A stretch of DNA of 32,000 nucleotides from positions 1 to 32,000 of the forward strand of contig NC_006624.1 of the NCBI RefSeq assembly GCF_000009965.1, read 5' to 3'. The DNA comes from Thermococcus kodakarensis KOD1. GTDB lineage: Archaea; Methanobacteriota_B; Thermococci; Thermococcales; Thermococcaceae. This document shows positions 7,015 through 21,187 of this stretch, one piece after another. The notes below the pieces were generated by a model, which saw nothing but the letters and a program-made list of their open reading frames with translations, ran no database searches and was not told the origin of the DNA. The first letter of the stretch is position 1, and each line of letters starts with the position of its first letter. Both the position numbers and the translations under genes were made by a program.

Positions 7015-7427
7015 TTCCAAGGAGCTCAAGGAGTTCTTTGGTGTTCACCACGTCAATCTCCTCTATTTCCTTCAGTCTCTTGTCGTTGTTCCACAGGGGG
7101 CTTTTACTTTTAGGGCCAGTGCCACAAAGTCAGCGTCATCTTTGTCGGGGGTTATTCGAGTGCTAGAGGTATGAACTCGGCGTAGAACCCCTCGTTTACG
7201 AATATGACATGCTCTTTAAGAACGGACAGTATTTCCTCGAACTCTTTCTCTCCGATCTTTGCTTTTTTCAGGACTTCGTCCCTGTGCTCGTGAAGCTCTT
7301 CCAGTGCAAACTCGGGACTTATAAGTCTCCCTGATACCAAGAACACGAGCTCTCTGGTTACTGTTGATTTCCCGAAGAAAGAGAATAGCACGTTTGTGTT
7401 AACTACGAGAAGAATATCTTCTCTCAA
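7004..7427 (-). pseudogene. PIN-domain toxin gene disrupted by two -1 frameshifts
   Basis: Frame A gives 91 aa (7152-7427) ending EFIPLALE-stop. The reading continues in a second frame as ITPDKDDADFVALALKVK and in a third as SPLWNNDKRLKEIEEIDVVNTKELLELLGITR-stop (stop at 7004-7006). Together these form one PIN domain of normal length. Each frame change lies next to a G5 run on the plus strand (7147-7151 and 7096-7100). Confidence 0.7.
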
Positions 7428-7614
7428 GGTACTCGCCCCTTCCCATTTTCGCCTTCCGTCCGAGTTCTATTGCATCCTCTTCTGAGAGTTCGGAGTTCTT
7501 GAGCATCTCATTGAGCCTTGCGAGGGTTTTCAGTCTCTCCGCGATAGTCTTTGCTATCAAATCGGCCAGCTTTTCGTCCACACTCGGGGGGACCTTGACC
7601 ACTATGTCTCCCAC
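7399..7614 (-). CDS. Small antitoxin-like protein upstream of the PIN gene
   Basis: 71-aa ORF (GTG start) overlapping the PIN start by 29 nt, with a charged helical C-terminal half (LSEEDAIELGRKAKMGRGEY). TTATAA and GGTGAT lie upstream on the minus strand. The family assignment rests on context only. Confidence 0.5.
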   Translation of the reverse strand: MGDIVVKVPPSVDEKLADLIAKTIAERLKTLARLNEMLKNSELSEEDAIELGRKAKMGRGEYLERRYSSRS

Positions 7615-7654
7615 GCTATCACCGCTCTTACTACGCCGCTCTGCTTATAACGGT

Positions 7655-8755
7655 TTATCCTCTGTACCTCAGCACGTGGATGTCCCTTACGACCCTGTGC
7701 CTCTCCTCGTAGTCAGGGTACCTCCCGAGGACTTCAAAGCCGAGCTTCACGAGCCACTTCCTCTCCTTCCGGTATATTCCACCGCCGCTCAGCTTGTAGG
7801 CCGGGAAGACAAAGACAACCTTTCCGTTTCTTTTCAGAACGTCGGCAAAGCTCTCGAAGACCGAATAATAGAAGCGGTCGAGCTCGTTGGCCAGCTTTAT
7901 GGCCTCGCCCCTACTCGGGTGTCTTTTGAGGGGCTTTCCGAGGTAGGGTTCGGTGACTATAGCATCGAACCTCTGTCTAAAACACTTCTTCAGCTTTCTG
8001 GCGTCGCAGACTTCTAAGTGAGCCGAGTTTTTGAGCCGGAACTCTTTCCTCAGCCAGGTGAGATTCTTCTTGGCATCCCTGATCTGCCCCTCGTCGCGGT
8101 CGCTCCCGTAGGCAGTAAGCCCCTGAAGAACGAACTCCTGAACCACCGTTCCAATGCCGCAGAACGGATCCAGGAAGCTCCCCTTTCTAACCTCCGTCAG
8201 GTTCACCATTATCCTTGCCAGTCTCGGCGGAATCGAGAGGATGGGCTTCTGGACGGGCCTCTCGACGTCGAGCTTCTTCAGCTCGAAGGGGTCCGTTACT
8301 CTGATCGTCTCGCCGACGAGGAAGCTCCCGTCTTCCCTGAACAGAAAGACGAAGTCCTTAACCTCCGGAAAGCCCTTGAGGATGAGCTCCGCGGGCATGG
8401 CATATGTTTTTGCGGGCTTGAAGAACTTAGCTGACCCCTCCTCTTTGAACCTCTTCTTTATCTCGCTCCCGAGCTTACGCCAGAGCTTCCAGTCGCTCTT
8501 CCCGTAGAGACTGACCGTAAAAAGCCTGGAGTACTCCAGCTCCTCCAGAGCCTCTTCTCCCTCCCCAACTATCCTGACGAGCTTGAGAGAACCGCCTATC
8601 CACCGGAAATATCTCTCCACCGAAGGCTTGGATTCAAAGACTATCCAGTTATGCTCTTCCTCAATCGATTTAACTTTTAGTCCGAATCTTCTCCCGAAAG
8701 AGTAAAATTCAGCACGGCTGAGCTCTGAATTCTTTCCTAAGATTACTCCATACAT
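7655..8755 (-). CDS. Class I SAM-dependent RNA methyltransferase, Trm11/UPF0020-like (putative tRNA guanine-N2 methyltransferase paralogue)
   Basis: The N-terminal domain starts MYGVILGKNSELSRAEF, as in Trm11-type proteins. SAM motif I is FLDPFCGIGTVVQE. The motif IV variant is VTEPYLG (in place of DPPY). 366 aa. Confidence 0.65.
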   Translation of the reverse strand: MYGVILGKNSELSRAEFYSFGRRFGLKVKSIEEEHNWIVFESKPSVERYFRWIGGSLKLVRIVGEGEEALEELEYSRLFTVSLYGKSDWKLWRKLGSEIKKRFKEEGSAKFFKPAKTYAMPAELILKGFPEVKDFVFLFREDGSFLVGETIRVTDPFELKKLDVERPVQKPILSIPPRLARIMVNLTEVRKGSFLDPFCGIGTVVQEFVLQGLTAYGSDRDEGQIRDAKKNLTWLRKEFRLKNSAHLEVCDARKLKKCFRQRFDAIVTEPYLGKPLKRHPSRGEAIKLANELDRFYYSVFESFADVLKRNGKVVFVFPAYKLSGGGIYRKERKWLVKLGFEVLGRYPDYEERHRVVRDIHVLRYRG

Positions 8756-12286: not shown

Positions 12287-13807
<1,521 letters not shown>

Positions 13808-13808
<1 letters not shown>

Positions 13809-14023
13809 CACTCCCACAGCTCCCGCTTGAGTTCTTCCCACTCTTTCAGCTCTTCTACTTCAACGCTGTCGAAAAACTTCTTCAGGTTGGCCTTTCTCCG
13901 TGGTAGAACCTCAACTCTGTCGCCCAAATCAACGATGATTACTTCATCACCGAGCTTTTCCCTGAGTTCCTTTGGGAGATGGAGCCTTCCCTGCGCGTCT
14001 ATCCTCTTCACAACTACTTCCAT
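13808..14023 (-). CDS. vapB: AbrB/SpoVT-type antitoxin VapB
   Basis: MEVVVKRIDAQGRLHLPKELREKLG...VEVLP is the swapped-hairpin AbrB/MazE motif. GGTGAG RBS precedes the ATG at 14023. The track ORF extends to 14056. Confidence 0.8.
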
Positions 14024-14152
14024 GCTCTCACCAAAACTGATATATTCTTGGAGCACTAAATAGTTTTTGGTAGAAATTTGGCTTTGTGGAGAAAGCAGTT
14101 TAGCTTAACAAACCCACAACTCTTAAATAAGCATTCCTCCAACTTTGGAGCG

Positions 14153-14896
14153 ATGCGCCGGGACTACACCCTCTACCTCTTTGCAGCACTGGGGACCTTC
14201 CTGATAGCCTACATAGCCGTCCCGATAGCGGTTATTTTCCTCAAACAGGCCTCCGACGTGGAAATGCTTGTTAAAACCCTCCACGATCCGTATGTGATAG
14301 AGGCCATCAGAAACTCCCTTCTAACCGCGACCGCGACCGCCCTGATAGCCCTTCTCTTCGGCGTCCCGCTCGGCTACGTCCTGGCGAGAAAAGATTTCCC
14401 CGGAAAGAGCGCGGTTCAGGCTTTGGTGGACGTTCCGATAGTCATACCGCACTCAGTCGTCGGCATAATGCTTCTCGTCACGTTCTCAAACTCAATCCTC
14501 GACAGTTATAAGGGGATAGTAGCCGCGATGCTCTTCGTCTCTGCTCCGTTCACGATCAACGCCGCAAGGGATGGGTTTCTTGCGGTTGATGAGAAGCTTG
14601 AAGCCGTCGCCAGAACGCTCGGCGCTTCCCGCTGGCGGGCGTTTCTGTCTATTTCACTCCCGATGGCGTTTCCATCCATAGCGAGCGGGGCGATAATGAC
14701 GTGGGCGAGGGCAATAAGCGAGGTCGGTGCGATACTGATAGTCGCTTACTACCCTAAAACTGCCCAGGTTCTCATCCTGGAGTACTTCAACAACTACGGA
14801 CTGCGAGCATCGAGGCCTATAGCAGTGATTATGGTGAGCCTGAGCCTCGGAATCTTCGTAATACTCCGCTGGCTGGTGGGGAGGAAGAACGCTTGA
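14153..14896 (+). CDS. wtpB: Tungstate/molybdate ABC transporter permease WtpB
   Basis: Polytopic membrane protein with the ABC permease EAA loop ([22 protein letters not shown]). The likely start is MRRDYTLYL at 14153. The track ORF opens at 14078. Confidence 0.9.
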
Positions 14897-14944
14897 GGAT
14901 AAAACTTTAATTAGAGTAGCGTCGATAACGAAGAGGGGAGAGCT

Positions 14945-15964
14945 ATGATAACATCTCTTCAGATTGAGAACTTCAGGGGCATAAAAAAGCTGAATCTGAG
15001 TAATCTTGGTCAGATTAATGTAATTGCGGGTAAAAACAACGCAGGCAAGTCGAGCGTGCTTGAGGCGTTATCTCTTTTCTTGGCGGCTTTTGGAGGAATT
15101 CAGTCAGTTAAGAGCGCTCTTCAAGAAATCCTGATATGGCGCGGATGGTATGGTTCTCAGGCTATAGAGGACTTATTTCATTCAAAGGCAGAACTTGCTA
15201 GGATTGTATCTACGAAGATAGATGCTTCATGGGAGCTTGTGCTAAAAAAGGAGATGTCCGGACTCAATGCATTGCCCACCCTTAAAGTTACGCTAAAACA
15301 GATCGATGAGGAGCATCCAAAGTTTAGTGCGGGATTTCAGATTCATAATCTAGTTGACAACAATGTATTGTCTATATCCCTGCTTTCATCAAAATTTGAC
15401 CCCAGTCTTAATTTTGAATTCATAACTCCTCTGACTCTCCGTAAGTTTGGATATGTTGAGAGCCTCTACTCCATTGGCTATGAGAGGAAGGTTGTAAAAG
15501 AAAGCATAAACATCCTTAACGAGGCTTATCCTGAGGTTGAGGGGTTTAGTCCCCTGTTCAAAGCAAATAAATGGATACTCCACGTCGAGACCAAATATGG
15601 TGTTTATCCATATTACTTAATGGGAGAAGGATTCAAAAACGCGATGATCATAGCGTTTCTGGCATCGCTTTTAAAGGGGGGATACCTTCTCATAGACTCC
15701 GCAGAGGCCTTCCATCACCCCAAGTCCCTGAGGGTCATGTCCAAGACCCTCGTTAAAGGGGCAAAGCAAAACGATGTCCAGGTGTTTTTAACCACCCACA
15801 GCATTGAGCTTATCGACATGCTAATCAAATATGGCTTAGAAAGCAAGGTTGATGGAAGGGTGATTTACATGAAGCGTGAGAACGGAAACGTAAAAGCCTC
15901 AATAGAAACCTTTGAAGAATCGCAAGAACTAAGGGAAACCCTGGGATTGGATCTGAGGGGATGA
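14945..15964 (+). CDS. AAA_21/AAA_15-type ABC ATPase (RecF/SMC-like N-terminus), OLD/AriA/PtuA-like
   Basis: N-terminus is IENFRGIKKLNLSNLGQINVIAGKNNAGKSSVLEAL (Walker A). LLIDSAEAFHHP occupies the Walker B position and FLTTHS the H-loop position. 339 aa. The first 100 nt contain 37 G+C by hand count. Confidence 0.8.
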   Translation: MITSLQIENFRGIKKLNLSNLGQINVIAGKNNAGKSSVLEALSLFLAAFGGIQSVKSALQEILIWRGWYGSQAIEDLFHSKAELARIVSTKIDASWELVLKKEMSGLNALPTLKVTLKQIDEEHPKFSAGFQIHNLVDNNVLSISLLSSKFDPSLNFEFITPLTLRKFGYVESLYSIGYERKVVKESINILNEAYPEVEGFSPLFKANKWILHVETKYGVYPYYLMGEGFKNAMIIAFLASLLKGGYLLIDSAEAFHHPKSLRVMSKTLVKGAKQNDVQVFLTTHSIELIDMLIKYGLESKVDGRVIYMKRENGNVKASIETFEESQELRETLGLDLRG

Positions 15965-15967
15965 AAC

Positions 15968-16699
15968 ATGGAGACTAGGCTTTTGCTTTTGGAAGGTCGG
16001 ACTGATGTTAGTTTCTTTCTTCCTTTGATAAAAGAGCTTTATGGATTCAAAGAGGCCAAATGTGAGGATCTTCCAGTTTTAGAAGAAGGTCCGAAAAAGA
16101 AAGGACTATCACGGGCAATCTGCCTGAGTAAAGATGATACTAGGTTGGTTGTGTGGCACGCCAACGGAAAGGACAATCTAAAAAACGCCCTTAAATTGAT
16201 TTTCAAAGCGATTGAGAGGCTTGAGGATACACCCGCCATCATCGGGATTGCGAGGGACGTTGATACCGAGGAGAGCATCTTAAACTGGGCTAAAAGCACT
16301 TTGCAGAGTGGGGGTTTTGAACCCGATGTAAAAGATGGATATCTCATGATAAACGGGATAAAGGTCATTCCATTTGGAATTGGGGAAGTTGATTTTGATG
16401 CAAGGGACATCGATCTAAAAAAAGAACTTGAACTCTTAATGGCTCTTCTAGCTAAGAAGGAAAGCAGCCTCTCAAAGCTAGAGGGTTCTATAAGTCAGCT
16501 CAGGAAAGACTTGGGGAGAAAGCTCACCCCAAAGGATATCATGCATCTCCTGGCAATCGCCCGGAACTATGGTGGAGACTCTATGTCGGGACTGTACCGA
16601 AACTTCATTGAGAAACTAATCAGGGAAAACAGGGAGCTCGTGGAGGAGTTTTTGAACGAGTCGGGATTGAAAGAATTCCTAAACGCTATTGCTCGGTGA
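15968..16699 (+). CDS. TOPRIM-like protein (DUF4435/OLD-TOPRIM-like), partner of the upstream ATPase
   Basis: Starts 3 nt after the ATPase stop. N-terminal [13 protein letters not shown] supplies the conserved Glu after strand 1, and [12 protein letters not shown] supplies DxD, matching TOPRIM spacing. 243 aa. The first 100 nt contain 40 G+C. The fold assignment is by motif only. Confidence 0.55.
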
Positions 16700-16704
16700 G
16701 AATC

Positions 16705-17697
16705 ATGGTTCTTATGGTTGAAGGAATCTCCAAGGACTACCGCGAGTTCCATCTGAGGGATGTAACGTTCTCGGTAGAGAAGGGAGAGCACTTCATAATA
16801 CTGGGGCCAAGCGGTGCTGGAAAGACGGTTCTTCTTGAAGTGATAGCGGGGATAATAGAGCCCGACTCTGGAAGGATATTCCTGAACGGGGAGGACATAA
16901 CTGACCTGCCGCCCGAGAAGAGGGGTCTCGCTTATATACCTCAGAACTACGCCCTCTTCCCGAACATGAGCGTCTTCGACAACATAGCCTTCGGCCTGAA
17001 AGTGCGGAAGGTTCCGAAAGCCGAAATTGGGCGGAAAGTGAGAGAGCTCTCGGAAGTCCTCGGCATTTCCCACCTTCTCAAAAGAAAGCCGAAGACCCTG
17101 AGCGGCGGTGAGATGCAGAGGGTAGCGATAGCGAGGGCCCTGGCAGTTGAGCCTGAACTTCTTCTCTTGGATGAGCCCTTTGCCAACCTCGACGTACAGA
17201 CAAGGGGAAGACTCATTAACGAAATGAAAAGGTGGAGGAAAGAGCTTGGCTTCACAGCCCTCCATGTCACGCACTCCTTTGAGGAGGCCGTGAGTCTAGG
17301 AGATAGAGTTGGGGTCATGCTCAATGGACGGCTCGTTCAAGTTGGCCCTGTTAGAGAAGTGTTCTCACGGCCAGCGAGCGAGGAAGTTGCGAAATTCCTT
17401 GGCTTTGAAAACATCGTTGAAGGGCTCGCGGAGGGCAGAATTCTCCGCGCAAACGGCCTCGTGATAGAGCTTCCCATTGAGGCTTCTGGAAGAATCAGGG
17501 TCGGGATAAGGCCAGAGGACATCGTGCTGTCTGATGAACCTCTGAAGAGCTCGATGAGAAACACCTTCCAGGCCGAAGTCCAGGCCGACGTCGAGGAGCT
17601 CGGGGAGCTCGGTCCGCGTACGCGTAAGGCTAAAGGCCGGTGGAGTGGAGCTTTCAGCATTCGTTACCCGCTCTTCGGTGCTGGAGCTGGGGCTTGA
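16705..17697 (+). CDS. wtpC: Tungstate/molybdate ABC transporter ATPase WtpC (C-terminus frameshifted as read)
   Basis: Walker A GPSGAGKT, signature LSGGEMQR, Walker B LLLLDEP and H-loop HVTHS are all present. The last roughly 30 residues of this frame ([27 protein letters not shown]) look non-native. Confidence 0.9.
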
Positions 17698-17779: not shown

Positions 17780-18784
17780 TCATTCAATCTTGGCCCCACA
17801 GACCGGGCAGAACTTCGCTCCTTCAGGAACTATGTGGCCGTTCGGACAGCGTTTTATCTCGTGGCCGCAGTAGGGACAGAACCTCGCTCCAGGTGGAAGG
17901 GGCTTGCCGCAGTACGGGCATATCTCCTGCTGTTGGGCCTGCGGTTGGGCTTGTTGCTGTGCCGGCTGGTTCTGGTATCCTGCCGGAGGAACTCCACCTC
18001 CAGCATTGGGCTGGGCGGGCTGAGCCGGGGCCTGCGGCTGCATCAGCTGGGGAATGAGAACCATTCCTGTGCCAACCGAGGCGCTTCCGCTCTTTCCGAG
18101 TTCAGCAGCAACCTGCTTCGCGGTATCTAACTGCATTACAGCCTGGGCGTTGCCAGTCTGCATTATCCAGAAGAGCCTCTGCCTCCACTCGTCTGTCGTG
18201 TTCACGCCCTCTATCTTCACATCCACAAGTTCAAGGCCCAGCCTCCTGAAGTCCTCCATGAGCTTTACCTTGACCTGCGTGCTGACCATGTCGAGGTTCT
18301 GGAAGAGGTCAACGATGGAATAAGAACTGAGGTGCTTCATCATGCCCTCGTTGAAGTAAGCGCGGATGAACTTCGTAACGTCGCTCGTGTCGTAGAGGCT
18401 CTGGCCACCTACGACCTCCGTCAGGAACTGGACAGGATCAGCAACCTTGAACCAGTAGACACCGTAGTACTTTATGGGAGCGAGCTCTCTCGTCTGCGTC
18501 TCGCCTCCGTACCTTCCCTGGAACTCCTTGGTGCTGACGAAGATTACCGTCGCTTTAAAGGGGCTGTTGCTCCCGCCGACGAGTTTGTAAAGCAATGGAA
18601 GGTTCTGGGTCGTCAGCGTGTGCCTGCCCGGCCCGAAGACGTCATAGACCTTCCCGTCGCGCATGAAGACCGCAACTTCATACTCGTGGACTACCAGCTG
18701 GGCGCCCCACTTTATGACCTCGTTTGGGTACCTCCAGATTATCTCGTCCTCTCCTGGATTGACCCACTCAATAACCTGCACCAT
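17780..18784 (-). CDS. SPFH/band-7 family protein with C-terminal double zinc ribbon (YdjI/COG4260-like)
   Basis: The N-terminus VIEWVNPGEDEIIWRYP and a body of about 230 aa are typical of YdjI-type SPFH proteins. A Q/P/A-rich linker follows (PQAPAQPAQP...QPAQQQAQPQAQQQ), then CPYCG...CPYCG...CPNG...CPVCG. The ATG at 18784 follows GGGGTGAG. An alternative GTG start is at 18793. Confidence 0.75.
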   Translation of the reverse strand: MVQVIEWVNPGEDEIIWRYPNEVIKWGAQLVVHEYEVAVFMRDGKVYDVFGPGRHTLTTQNLPLLYKLVGGSNSPFKATVIFVSTKEFQGRYGGETQTRELAPIKYYGVYWFKVADPVQFLTEVVGGQSLYDTSDVTKFIRAYFNEGMMKHLSSYSIVDLFQNLDMVSTQVKVKLMEDFRRLGLELVDVKIEGVNTTDEWRQRLFWIMQTGNAQAVMQLDTAKQVAAELGKSGSASVGTGMVLIPQLMQPQAPAQPAQPNAGGGVPPAGYQNQPAQQQAQPQAQQQEICPYCGKPLPPGARFCPYCGHEIKRCPNGHIVPEGAKFCPVCGAKIE

Positions 18785-18785
18785 A

Positions 18786-19280
18786 TCACTCACCCCTCAG
18801 TATTGCGCTCCTTCCTTCGAGGACTTCCTCGAAGTTCCTCAGCATGTCATCGAGGGCGAAGACCTCCCCACCAAGTCTTTGAGGATCGGCAACGGCTCCG
18901 GAGATTGCGCCGGCCTTATCCCTGATCCCTTCGGCCAGCTCTATCATCTTCGCGTCGTACTCGATGAGCTTCTCAAGCTCCTTCTCCTTTATCTTCACCC
19001 TGTCAAAAAAGCCGGCGTAGCCTGCCTCGGCGTGCTTGACCTTCCCTTCGAGCATGATCAGCCTCTTCCTCATGTCCTCTATCGCCATGAGCATGTTGCA
19101 GTTCACCATTGCGCACCTCTGTAGGGCCCTTTCGAGCTCTCTCCTTGCCCCTGCGAGTATCTCTGCTACCTTTGCCCTCACAAGCCTGTCGTCCTCCCTC
19201 AGGAGCTCCTTCTTCTTGTAGCCGTGGAAGCCGGGAACGACGAGCTCAAGCTTTTCCCATATCGAAGTTTCCTTCCCCAT
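18786..19280 (-). CDS. Small all-helical/coiled-coil protein (164 aa), function unknown
   Basis: Strong GAGGTGG RBS. Charged heptad-like sequence (LLREDDRLVRAKVAEILAGARRELERAL, KIKEKELEKLIEYDAKMIELAEGIRDKA). Embedded in the SPFH operon. Confidence 0.6.
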   Translation of the reverse strand: MGKETSIWEKLELVVPGFHGYKKKELLREDDRLVRAKVAEILAGARRELERALQRCAMVNCNMLMAIEDMRKRLIMLEGKVKHAEAGYAGFFDRVKIKEKELEKLIEYDAKMIELAEGIRDKAGAISGAVADPQRLGGEVFALDDMLRNFEEVLEGRSAILRGE

Positions 19281-19289
19281 AATACCACC

Positions 19290-20183
19290 TCAAACGGGCA
19301 TGAAGTAGGTGTTGCCCTTCTTTATCCCCATAACTTCGCTAACAACCCTCTTGCTAACAGAGCCTTTTGAAAAGACTCCTGCGGCTCCGGCGCCTCCACC
19401 AACGAGGCCGCCGATGAGTCCCCAGACTGTTCCAGCGTAGGCCGACGCTATGATTCCGAGCACCGCCCCGGCACCGATAAGTCCGATGCCGAGGAGAGTA
19501 GTCCTCTTCCTGGCCTCGCTCATCAGCGGATACTCCGCTCTTATCACCCTTCCATCGGTCCCGTCAACGAAGTTGACGAAGCTCTGGCCATCGTACTCAT
19601 AGTGGACTTCCCAGACTGGGTAGTGCACAAGACCCTGGAAGACCACTTCAAGCTCGAACTCACCGGTTCTGGCGCTTTCCTCCCTCACCTCCTGCTGCAA
19701 CGCCGTCGTTATGTGGGAGCGGGCTATCTCCTCCGCCTTCTCCCTTGGCATCTCCGGCTCGTAGTACTTCCCCTTCTTCACTATGGCCTCGTCGAAGAAC
19801 TTCTTCCCCCTGACCGGGAACGGGTAGTTCATCAGGAGCGTTTTGAAGGGCGAACCTGCTGGAATCCCGAGAAAGCGGACTTCTTCAACGGTCTCCTTGT
19901 ACTTGTCCCTCCCGTGGAGGTAGAAGAAGTAGACCGGAACCCAGTGGAGCTCCTTCTTAGTTACCCTCGCGTCCACAATATCGGCAGGGGCACCGTACTG
20001 TCTTGAGAGGAACTTGAGGAGCTTTCCGGCGGGATCTTCCCTCATAGGCGAGAAGAAGAAGTGCTCCCCAACCTTCTCGCCGCTCTCGACCTTGAAGGTT
20101 GCCCCACAGTAGGGGCAGGTCGCGACCGTGACGGTGTCGGGAACCTTGAAAGTTGCCGAACAGACGGGGCAGGTTACCTCCAT
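19290..20183 (-). CDS. Zinc-ribbon membrane protein with C-terminal glycine-zipper TM region (paralogue of the upstream gene)
   Basis: N-terminal CPVCSATFKV...CPYCGATF. C-terminal LLGIGLIGAGAVLGIIASAYAGTVWGLIGGLVGGGAGAAGVF. The ATG at 20183 overlaps the upstream stop (TGATG) and follows GGGGTGAT. Confidence 0.7.
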   Translation of the reverse strand: MEVTCPVCSATFKVPDTVTVATCPYCGATFKVESGEKVGEHFFFSPMREDPAGKLLKFLSRQYGAPADIVDARVTKKELHWVPVYFFYLHGRDKYKETVEEVRFLGIPAGSPFKTLLMNYPFPVRGKKFFDEAIVKKGKYYEPEMPREKAEEIARSHITTALQQEVREESARTGEFELEVVFQGLVHYPVWEVHYEYDGQSFVNFVDGTDGRVIRAEYPLMSEARKRTTLLGIGLIGAGAVLGIIASAYAGTVWGLIGGLVGGGAGAAGVFSKGSVSKRVVSEVMGIKKGNTYFMPV

Positions 20184-21187
20184 CAAATCACCCCCAAGGA
20201 GCCTTCCCTTTCAACCCTCTGCCCTTCGAGGGCCTTACTGCCGGCGACCCAGCCGAGGGCAGCTCCACCAACCATCACCAGTATTCCGAAGACCGGCGAT
20301 GTTGAGACCAATGCCCCGCCGAAGGCCGCTATCAGCGCCCCGACCCCTGCCCCTGCCAGGTATTCGGCTCTTCTGAACAGGTTCATCGGCTCGGTGGCAG
20401 CGACTGCCTTTCCATCCCAGCCCGCGAAGACCGTCTGGAATATCGAGTTGCTGTACCTGTAGTAGATTGTCCACAGAGGAAGGAGGATGAGCCTGACGTT
20501 CTCCGGTTCTGATGCGTGTATATCAAACCGCTCTATCCTGTCGGATTTCGCTAAAAAGCGGTTCCTTATCACGTCCACGGCGTCTTCCCTCATCATGAGC
20601 TTCGCGTGGAGCTCATCCATCTCCGTGTTGAGGATTTCGAGCTTTATTTTGCTCCAGCTCTCCTCGTCGAGGTCAAGGAGTTTTTTCTCCTTCGGCCTGC
20701 TCTTTGAGAAGTGCTTTACCATATCTTCAACGCCGAGGCTCTTTACTTGCCTCCTGGCCGAGCCGAGGAGTGAAAGGTTCTCGTTCACCCTCTCCGTGTA
20801 GTGCCTCTCGACCGTGTGGCAGTGGGTATTTCCTTTGGAATCCGTGTGGCACTCCTGCTCGCGCTTCATGTACCTTACAGTTCCCTCAACGTGCACCTTT
20901 CCTGCCCAGTAGGGGGCGTAGTGCCCTTCTATCCCGACTATCTGGATGTCATCCTTTATCCTTCTCAGGTCGAAGTCCTTCTCGACCCTCTTCCAGAAGG
21001 ATTGGGCTATCGCGTTCTTGTCGAGGGAGGGGACGATGTAGATGTTCTCGGTCTTTATGTTGCCACTTATATGGTTCGGATAACCGCAGTAGGGACAGAC
21101 CGCGATTATCGTTTCGGGAGAAACCTCAAGCGGCGCCCCACAGCGCTCACACCTAAAAGTGAACTCCTCCATGTTGACCACTCTCAT
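20183..21187 (-). CDS. Zinc-ribbon membrane protein with C-terminal glycine-rich TM region (YdjG-like architecture)
   Basis: N-terminal FRCERCGAPLEV...CPYCGYPN. C-terminal LAGAGVGALIAAFGGALVSTSPVFGILVMVGGAALGWVAG. The start is ATG at 21187 or 21172. Confidence 0.7.
   Translation of the reverse strand: MRVVNMEEFTFRCERCGAPLEVSPETIIAVCPYCGYPNHISGNIKTENIYIVPSLDKNAIAQSFWKRVEKDFDLRRIKDDIQIVGIEGHYAPYWAGKVHVEGTVRYMKREQECHTDSKGNTHCHTVERHYTERVNENLSLLGSARRQVKSLGVEDMVKHFSKSRPKEKKLLDLDEESWSKIKLEILNTEMDELHAKLMMREDAVDVIRNRFLAKSDRIERFDIHASEPENVRLILLPLWTIYYRYSNSIFQTVFAGWDGKAVAATEPMNLFRRAEYLAGAGVGALIAAFGGALVSTSPVFGILVMVGGAALGWVAGSKALEGQRVEREGSLGVI

Follow-up and report, generated by a model that had tools for sequence, protein, structure and literature searches.

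The first 32,000 nucleotides (nt) of Thermococcus kodakarensis KOD1 (contig NC_006624.1; this whole stretch is called the window below) carry, inside the operon for the Wtp tungstate transporter, two co-oriented open reading frames (ORFs) of 339 and 243 amino acids (aa) separated by a 3-nt gap. Gene 1 encodes an ATP-binding cassette (ABC) ATPase and gene 2 a protein of the DUF3226 family; the pair is flanked by wtpB on the left and wtpC on the right, with wtpA further upstream (Table 1). Together the two genes are probably a conflict cassette that is exchanged horizontally. It would belong to the split OLD-like group, alongside PARIS (AriA/AriB), AbiL and PDC-M38, as an archaeal branch, and it is lodged in a fixed hotspot between wtpB and wtpC. 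A mobile conflict cassette is preferred over a transporter component because of its presence/absence polymorphism, its foreign composition, the mosaicism of its alleles, a plasmid copy and the family relationships of its proteins. The locus was brought to attention by an original prediction, made from the letters of the window, of an AT-rich, horizontally acquired ATPase-plus-TOPRIM defense pair inside the wtp operon; its coordinates, ORF sizes and gap agree with the ORF listing, and the flanking genes are indeed wtpA, wtpB and wtpC.

The G+C content of the pair is 0.434, compared with a window mean of 0.517 (standard deviation 0.027), and is the lowest among non-overlapping intervals of 1755 bp. 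When the window was aligned by blastn with the corresponding region of Thermococcus peptonophilus (locus L093), the closest relative found, the block containing wtpB stopped at 14896 and the block containing wtpC restarted at 16726. The horizontally acquired look ascribed to the cassette is borne out on both counts, its composition being foreign and the pair being absent from this relative. Hand counts of G and C in the original prediction were exact for the first 100 nt of the two cassette genes (37 and 40), while the 55 of 100 given for wtpB depends on the start codon chosen: 47 of 100 are counted from TTG 14078, and the entire gene stands at 0.54. Translation of wtpB may begin at ATG 14153 instead, since homologues align from about residue 21-26.

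Among Thermococcales-type loci with readable flanks, the pair occupies the wtpB-wtpC slot in 11 of 11, namely the window, T. litoralis, T. eurythermalis, T. zilligii, Pyrococcus sp. NA2, several metagenome-assembled genomes (MAGs) and an ‘Archaeoglobus’ MAG contig. The slot is empty in four wtpABC operons (T. peptonophilus, P. furiosus, T. gammatolerans and Geoglobus acetivorans), where wtpB and wtpC overlap by 8-14 nt, and the genes outside the wtp operon are syntenic between genomes with filled and empty slots. The overlapping state is probably ancestral, because the slot is empty in the Archaeoglobales outgroup. PH0156, the gene 2 homologue of P. horikoshii, probably sits in the same slot, as PH0151 is the WtpA of that genome. 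A metagenome scan for slot occupancy with WtpC returned generic ABC ATPases alone (≤51% identity) and was uninformative. Locus L096 (Logan SRR13776100), whose protein is named ‘Archaeoglobus sp.’ in NCBI, has the gene order Metallophos, CBS, ATP-cone, CpgS_N, wtpA, as in T. litoralis; either its bin assignment is doubtful or the entire region has been transferred.

All filled loci carry a GATAAAGCTTTAAG motif and a GGGGAT ribosome-binding site ahead of the ATPase gene, and their gene 2 stop lies inside GGGTGA(T), 2-8 nt ahead of the wtpC ATG, where it forms the wtpC ribosome-binding site. The TATA-like string AAAACTTTAATTA that had been predicted is present in the window at 14901-14913, with a similar GATAAAGCTTTAAG upstream of the ATPase in all occupied loci, and this motif, resembling a B recognition element (BRE) and TATA box, is a candidate cassette promoter. 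In the window and at loci L001 and L008, the 3′ end of wtpB keeps A(T/C)GCTTGA, the stop/start overlap of empty alleles, and a second, imperfect copy makes the wtpC start; with a copy on each side of the cassette, the overlap has therefore been duplicated. The repeated sequence spans 8-10 bp (ATGCTTGA[AG]G in empty alleles) and occurs imperfectly on both sides (14889-14896 and 16705-16724 in the window). These flanking copies could be a target duplication from insertion, or short repeats permitting precise loss.

Cassette alleles, whole or partial, are replaced in situ by recombination, as is evident from the decoupled identities of the wtp genes and the cassette and from sharp breakpoints, one of them inside gene 2. 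The proteins of loci L002 and L010 are 99% identical in WtpB and 94% in WtpC, whereas the ATPase is only 45% and the N-terminal domain of the DUF3226 protein 36% identical, its C-terminal domain being 100% identical. At the DNA level, the same two loci are 97-100% identical over wtpB, 25-78% over the ATPase gene and N-terminal domain, and 98-100% once more beyond approximately residue 160 of gene 2 and on into wtpC. Likewise, loci L004 and L096 share 99% identity in their Wtp proteins but 61% in the ATPase, 38% in the N-terminal domain and 52% in the C-terminal domain. The arms for homologous recombination are wtpB on one side and, on the other, wtpC together with the 3′ portion of gene 2, and the ATPase and putative nuclease-domain types are also shuffled against each other. 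The G+C content at third codon positions (GC3) of the cassette is 0.34-0.50 in every host, whereas that of the wtp genes tracks the host, at 0.62-0.84 where the host is GC-rich and 0.34-0.52 where it is GC-poor.

These data bear directly on an improbable alternative, in which the pair serves the Wtp tungstate transporter as an accessory or regulator, for example by gating wtpC expression or transporter activity. Such a role would be the sole explanation to account directly for the fixed location, and it is consistent with the presence of all 11 copies in the exact slot, co-oriented with the operon, and with the ribosome-binding site that the end of gene 2 supplies to wtpC. In the original prediction, universal conservation of the pair at this position was expected to imply an accessory role in transport; all Thermococcales copies do lie in the slot, but four operons are empty and the alleles are hypervariable, and the accessory role is disfavored for these reasons. 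Near-identical transporters accompany alleles only 36-61% identical, the GC3 of the cassette stands out as foreign where the host is GC-rich, no wtp genes accompany the pair on a methanogen plasmid or at locus L101, and its family relatives are defense candidates. Nor does the pair behave as an integral Wtp component, given that four wtpABC operons do without it and that cassette identity is decoupled from Wtp identity.

Gene 1 belongs, as predicted, to the AAA_15/AAA_21 ABC ATPases of the OLD/PARIS/AbiL neighborhood, and it passes the Pfam cutoff for both AAA_15 (81.5 bits, 1.2e-22) and AAA_21 (58.5 bits, 1.5e-15). Its best PADLOC match is PDC-M38A (2.6e-39, residues 2-338; the model has 367 positions), followed by AbiLi (7.1e-36, residues 1-319 onto positions 1-322 of 340) and then by AriA, NsnB, Old and GajA, mainly over the P-loop region. 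The AriA models score 1.2e-22 (best stretch residues 1-47) and 2.8e-17, below PDC-M38A and AbiLi, and NCBIfam gave N-terminal matches, far under cutoff, to the retron Eco8 effector, MAD3, RecF and Rad50. The description of the pair as unusually small does not survive comparison with the PDC-M38A and AbiLi models, beside which gene 1 is of normal length for its branch. Motifs quoted for gene 1 are in place (IENFRGI at residue 7, GKNNAGKSSVLEAL at 29, LLIDSAEAFHHP at 248 and LTTHS at 282).

The Ser noted in place of the catalytic Glu after the Walker B Asp proves to be a trait of the whole family. Residue 252 is Ser in 28 of 34 aligned members, Leu in 4, Thr in 2 and Glu in none, whereas the fused OLD-like set carries I-D-E-P-E at Walker B; the MGEGFK-type signature motif is also found in the fused OLD-like consensus. 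Ser at this Walker B position is seen in degenerate, poorly hydrolyzing ABC sites, such as that of CFTR NBD1. Because Ser there marks degenerate sites, gene 1 may act as a nucleotide-binding switch with slow or altered hydrolysis. Its hypervariable insert is a candidate sensor or partner-binding surface and sits where AriA has its insert IS1, for which a part in recognizing the trigger has been predicted (PMC11464382).

Gene 2 matches Pfam DUF3226 (PF11536) with 62 bits against a cutoff of 27, residues 4-229 aligning onto positions 2-200 of a 208-position model, and all 16 of the 16 close family members match it as well. DUF3226 was among the families that the original prediction proposed to check, and the Glu and DxD that it had pointed out, in motifs beginning at residues 5 and 91, are invariant across the family. 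A clear homologue of gene 2 is PH0156 of P. horikoshii (2p62_A; phmmer E 1.9e-44), to which the AlphaFold model of gene 2 (pLDDT 83.5, pTM 0.84) aligns in Foldseek with a TM-score of 0.86 and 38% identity in the structural alignment. Residues E9, G10, D13, R96, D97, D99 and T100 are invariant in 16 close relatives. The EGxxD and DxD motifs are kept even in the most distant DUF3226 members, including the plasmid copy (one variant has DxND), and lie in the gene 2 models at the C-terminal ends of the strands at residues 2-8 and 91-97. The C-terminal domain is the most conserved part of gene 2, more so than the putative catalytic domain, and travels with the wtpC-side flank in recombinants, with the breakpoint at about residue 160. 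The family is tiny, with 11 clusters at E≤1e-3 among 1.84 billion representatives. Gene 2 gave no match to DUF4435 in Pfam at E≤1, to AbiLii or RloB in PADLOC or Pfam, or to AriB in PADLOC at E≤1, where a single homologue (P0015) touches AriB at 2e-3.

The N-terminal domain of gene 2 is probably a TOPRIM homologue, on evidence that is mixed. A conserved Glu past strand 1 and a DxD past strand 3 follow the TOPRIM pattern, and 4 of 16 DUF3226 members match Pfam OLD-like_TOPRIM (best 4e-4). The Pyrococcus NA2 copy comes closest to this Pfam model, with 22.6 bits, just under the 23.2 cutoff, and matches PADLOC mad4 at 5e-9; DUF4276/Mad4 has been placed in the Toprim superfamily (PMC12065111). Comparison of the gene 2 family with true PDC-M38B by hhalign (30%, E 5.5e-4) aligns both EG and DxD. 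Against whole fused OLD-like proteins, a narrow family profile aligns motif I alone (19%). A broader N-domain profile was required to extend the alignment beyond that motif, and it matches the TOPRIM region of these proteins locally with 74% and E 2.7e-5 over 76 columns, pairing motif I, a GGK turn and DxD. In addition, a published table ranks 2P62_A/PH0156 first as template for PARIS-ii (AriB) of lactococci, with the annotation OLD-type TOPRIM (PMC11381338).

The two families were expected to occur together beyond this genome, and they always do, also outside wtp operons and on a plasmid. The M. jannaschii plasmid pDSM2661_1 (58,407 bp) carries, in order, a MazE-like gene, a hypothetical gene, the ATPase gene (product 52.5% identical to gene 1), the DUF3226 gene and MCM, with HerA/NurA also nearby. 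The plasmid ATPase (6991-7995 of locus L099; NC_001732.1 8158-9162) aligns in a single piece by tblastn and is annotated as two coding sequences of 209 and 114 aa, which may reflect a pseudogene or an in-frame interruption. Locus L101 holds an ATPase gene (product 27% identical) with a DUF3226 gene after it, and a type ISP restriction fragment lies nearby. A bona fide PDC-M38 pair (A 2.9e-105, B 2.5e-66) sits at locus L100 between hsdR and hsdS of a type I restriction-modification (R-M) locus, next to Abi_2, an integrase and Phd/YoeB. Beyond the M. jannaschii plasmid, a plasmid search with gene 1 gave P-loop-level bacterial matches alone. On the IMG/VR viral contig UViG_3300012999_000096 (locus L102, 4789-7880), the gene for a 747-aa protein, which has 23% identity to gene 1 in its C-terminal part, overlaps a 283-aa ORF that comes after it; this protein may represent a viral relative to which an N-terminal domain has been fused.

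The plasmid neighborhood bears on two further explanations. A housekeeping module for DNA repair or recombination, like RecF with RecR (a TOPRIM protein) or Rad50-type complexes, is highly improbable. At its N-terminus, gene 1 resembles RecF, RecN and Rad50 models (recF of NCBIfam at 3e-10), gene 2 has TOPRIM-like motifs, and the plasmid copy has HerA/NurA and MCM for neighbors, but the matches are confined to the P-loop region (residues 1-60) and far under cutoffs, and patchy presence, hypervariability, foreign G+C content and the tiny size of the family all speak against such a module. The main rival is a purely selfish addiction module resembling a toxin-antitoxin (TA) pair, in which a DUF3226 nuclease toxin and an ATPase antidote would persist by post-segregational or deletion killing and by hiding in an operon among genes that cannot be lost, with no antiviral benefit. 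Gaps of the same operon collect type II TA pairs (vapBC in the window, MazF with a ribbon-helix-helix (RHH) partner in L001), the plasmid copy adjoins a MazE-like gene, PARIS itself behaves as a TA pair (PMC13064643), and the distribution is patchy and the composition foreign. Strong allelic diversification focused in the ATPase insert, together with domain shuffling, is however more typical of arms-race sensors than of simple addiction modules, and relatives lie inside R-M loci alongside Abi genes, so that a purely selfish module is considered unlikely. Addiction and defense roles are mutually compatible.

Among the closest known systems is PDC-M38, a PADLOC candidate (Payne et al.) that is itself putative and that belongs to the PDC systems nominated by ‘guilt-by-embedding’ (bioRxiv 10.1101/2024.01.29.577857). 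In both, an ABC ATPase is followed by a partner of about 200-250 aa encoded by an abutting or overlapping gene, and the genes are embedded inside another operon; the window ATPase aligns with PDC-M38A over its full length, and the partners have an N-terminal domain in common with EG and DxD aligned. Unlike PDC-M38, gene 2 has a highly conserved, DUF3226-specific helical domain at its C-terminus, the host operon is that of a metal transporter rather than R-M, BREX or DISARM, and the ATPase is without the Glu after the Walker B Asp. AbiL of lactococci, a two-gene abortive infection system of an ATPase and a TOPRIM/OLD-type protein (PMC13064643), shares the full-length match of gene 1 to AbiLi, but it is bacterial and plasmid-borne, and its second component, like RloB, has no match in gene 2.

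PARIS, a class 4 OLD-like system, shares with the pair a split ABC ATPase and TOPRIM effector (gene 2 being TOPRIM-like), the variable ATPase insert at the IS1 position (PMC11464382), and the gene 2 homologue 2P62 as the listed best template for lactococcal AriB (PMC11381338). The window proteins are smaller (339/243 aa) than those of PARIS (about 470/300), a system with a trigger, a tRNA target and a hexameric assembly. Identity with PARIS, which the original prediction had left as one candidate, is not upheld, given the missing DUF4435 match and an AriA score below those of PDC-M38A and AbiLi. The E...DxD pattern and the association with AAA_15/21 ATPases are also shared with DUF4276/Mad4 and with OLD classes 1-3 (P2 Old, GajA and the retron Eco8 effector). 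In the latter classes, however, ATPase and TOPRIM are fused, and gene 2 reaches mad4 at 2e-3 with no Pfam DUF4276 match seen. PH0156 (PDB 2P62), a structural-genomics entry with a crystal structure available since 2007, is a member of the same DUF3226 family. Gene 2 fails to match PARIS effector and AbiLii models and matches PDC-M38B weakly, while gene 1 matches AbiLi and PDC-M38A; the description that fits the pair best is the ATPase-plus-TOPRIM theme in a DUF3226-type variant. Literature searches on DUF3226, PDC-M38 and wtp genes in Thermococcus returned nothing directly about the pair, nor any paper on what PDC-M38 does or on a comparable system from Thermococcales, and a recent survey of 7,747 archaeal genomes does not mention it.

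By analogy with PARIS and OLD, the pair may act in defense, with an ATPase that restrains a TOPRIM nuclease until a foreign trigger appears. The ATPase would form a dimer or oligomer with an intact nucleotide-binding site and a missing canonical catalytic Glu, and its hypervariable insert would bind or detect a trigger, in all likelihood a protein of a virus or plasmid. Until triggered, it would keep the DUF3226 nuclease inactive; the E/DxD metal site would then cut nucleic acid (tRNA or DNA), and this could halt growth or destroy the invader. Details of the mechanism may differ from PARIS in view of the missing catalytic Glu and the DUF3226-specific C-terminal domain. The fixed location of the cassette may be explained by wtpB and wtpC acting as conserved homology arms, while embedding in an important operon may supply transcription and shield the cassette from deletion.

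Several points weigh against a conflict cassette of the OLD-like group. The match of gene 2 to PDC-M38B is weak (5.6e-5) and covers residues 5-102, roughly the first 100, and without the catalytic Glu the ATPase may work unlike AriA or OLD. Global hhalign probability of the gene 2 N-terminal domain against OLD-like proteins is only 18-19%, a family profile hidden Markov model searched against PDB sequences gave 2P62 alone and no TOPRIM protein, and Foldseek searches with good full and domain models of gene 2 gave 2P62 alone and no TOPRIM structure. The TOPRIM-like character predicted for gene 2 stands as regards the invariant E/DxD and a moderate profile similarity to OLD-like TOPRIM, but the fold was not recovered by Foldseek. 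No DUF3226 copy was found on phage genomes or IMG/VR viral contigs, and the confinement of the Thermococcales copies to the wtp operon could still stem from a functional tie to the transporter. Finally, literature searches turned up no paper on DUF3226 function and no experimental report of defense, toxicity or nuclease activity in a DUF3226 protein.

A more far-reaching form of the conflict-cassette interpretation is put forward tentatively, as possible but not the likelier outcome. The wtpB-wtpC junction would then be a dedicated polymorphic immune locus, where a single ATPase-TOPRIM family is maintained as an allelic series; homologous recombination through the transporter genes would reshuffle its sensor insert, nuclease domain and conserved C-terminal domain from species to species. 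It would represent an archaeal, operon-embedded counterpart of bacterial defense hotspots, with a DUF3226 effector and a degenerate, non-hydrolyzing ABC switch that no characterized system uses.

Table 1. Features of the cassette, the wtp operon and the adjacent window-specific genes (window coordinates).
Feature	Coordinates	Strand	Basis or remarks
Whole inserted cassette relative to the T. peptonophilus empty allele	14897..16725	+	1829 bp in place of 10 bp; blastn against L093
BRE/TATA-like motif ATAAAACTTTAATTA	14899..14913	+	Junction comparison, 9 loci; GATAAAGCTTTAAG in all occupied loci
Shine-Dalgarno-like GAGGGGA upstream of gene 1 ATG	14933..14939	+	Sequence; conserved as GGGGAT at other loci
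Gene 1, ABC ATPase (AAA_15/AAA_21), PDC-M38A/AbiLi-like, 339 aa	14945..15964	+	Pfam, PADLOC
Walker A/P-loop GKNNAGKSS, residues 29-37	15029..15055	+	G29, K35 and S36 invariant, 34-member alignment
Hypervariable ATPase insert, residues ~81-150	15185..15394	+	Conservation 0.27-0.32 with large indels, against 0.7-0.84 in flanking blocks
ABC signature-like MGEGFK, residues 226-231	15620..15637	+	M, both G (G227, G229), F and K invariant; E/D at 228
Walker B YLLIDSAE, residues 247-254	15683..15706	+	D251 invariant; E254 in 33/34
H-loop TTHS	15791..15802	+	H285 invariant, 34-member alignment
Gene 2, DUF3226 protein, 243 aa, PH0156 (PDB 2P62) homologue	15968..16699	+	Pfam, phmmer, model
N-terminal alpha/beta domain, TOPRIM-like, residues 1-~145	15968..16402	+	beta1-alpha-beta-alpha-beta3-alpha-beta order, models; hhalign
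Motif I, E9/G10/D13 invariant, at end of strand 1	15980..16018	+	Family alignments
Motif II RDVDT, R96/D97/D99/T100 invariant in close family, end of strand 3	16253..16267	+	
Helical C-terminal domain, DUF3226-specific, residues 150-243	16415..16696	+	Conservation 0.70-0.83; invariant PKD..H..A..GDS.SGLYR
wtpA, periplasmic binding protein, upstream of wtpB	12338-13411		Homologues annotated WtpA in many Thermococcales
wtpB, left flank of hotspot	14078..14896	+	Pfam BPD_transp_1; tblastn to loci
wtpC, right flank of hotspot	16705..17697	+	Pfam ABC_tran 1.8e-37; junction and frame analysis
SPFH/Band7 protein with double zinc ribbon	17780-18793	-	
164-aa protein, no family match	18786-19280	-	
Zinc-ribbon protein	19290-20186	-	
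Protein with weak zinc-ribbon matches	20183-21187	-	

Around the cassette, the closest named homologue of WtpA is that of T. peptonophilus (94%). The start of wtpC is most likely ATG 16705 or 16714; an overlap of the pair with wtpC through GTG 16696, at the gene 2 stop, was considered and rejected, as homologous loci place the wtpC ATG 2-8 nt past that stop. The window copy of wtpC looks frameshifted: past ...EELGEL (~17611-17617), the conserved TOBE C-terminus continues in another frame to ~17752, and the ORF as called runs into unrelated sequence and stops at 17697. Either a sequencing error or the loss of a regulatory domain would explain the pattern.

The gap between wtpA and wtpB is a second cargo site. 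In the window, it holds a vapBC-like pair on the minus strand (13392-14056; PIN 13392-13841 and MazE/AbrB 13808-14056) that is absent from T. peptonophilus, while it contains a MazF/PemK and RHH pair in L001 (5353-6154) and DUF72 and major facilitator superfamily genes in Pyrococcus sp. NA2 (L098, 3315-5176). Elsewhere in the window, an insertion relative to T. peptonophilus at 7015-7655, with a PIN_2 ORF (7152-7427, minus strand, 91 aa) and a second ORF (7399-7614, minus strand, 71 aa), looks like a degraded TA pair. A window-specific block of 3.2 kb (17884-21084) contains four minus-strand genes, for none of which did PADLOC return a match.

OLD-like pairs in archaea would be expected by a specialist; less expected are an operon-embedded hotspot with an allelic series and a breakpoint inside the effector gene. 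Few archaeal defense systems besides CRISPR and R-M have been tested so far, and for DUF3226 there is now a specific role to put to the test, that of effector in a split OLD-like system. The natural allelic series is suited to mapping sensor specificity, and the conserved wtpB and wtpC flanks ease the finding and comparison of alleles across Thermococcales genomes. The locus also indicates that ‘embedded’ cassettes of the PDC-M38 type can sit in a housekeeping operon. For guilt-by-embedding this carries a caveat, in that embedding may be a property of the cassette rather than evidence of cooperation with its host operon.

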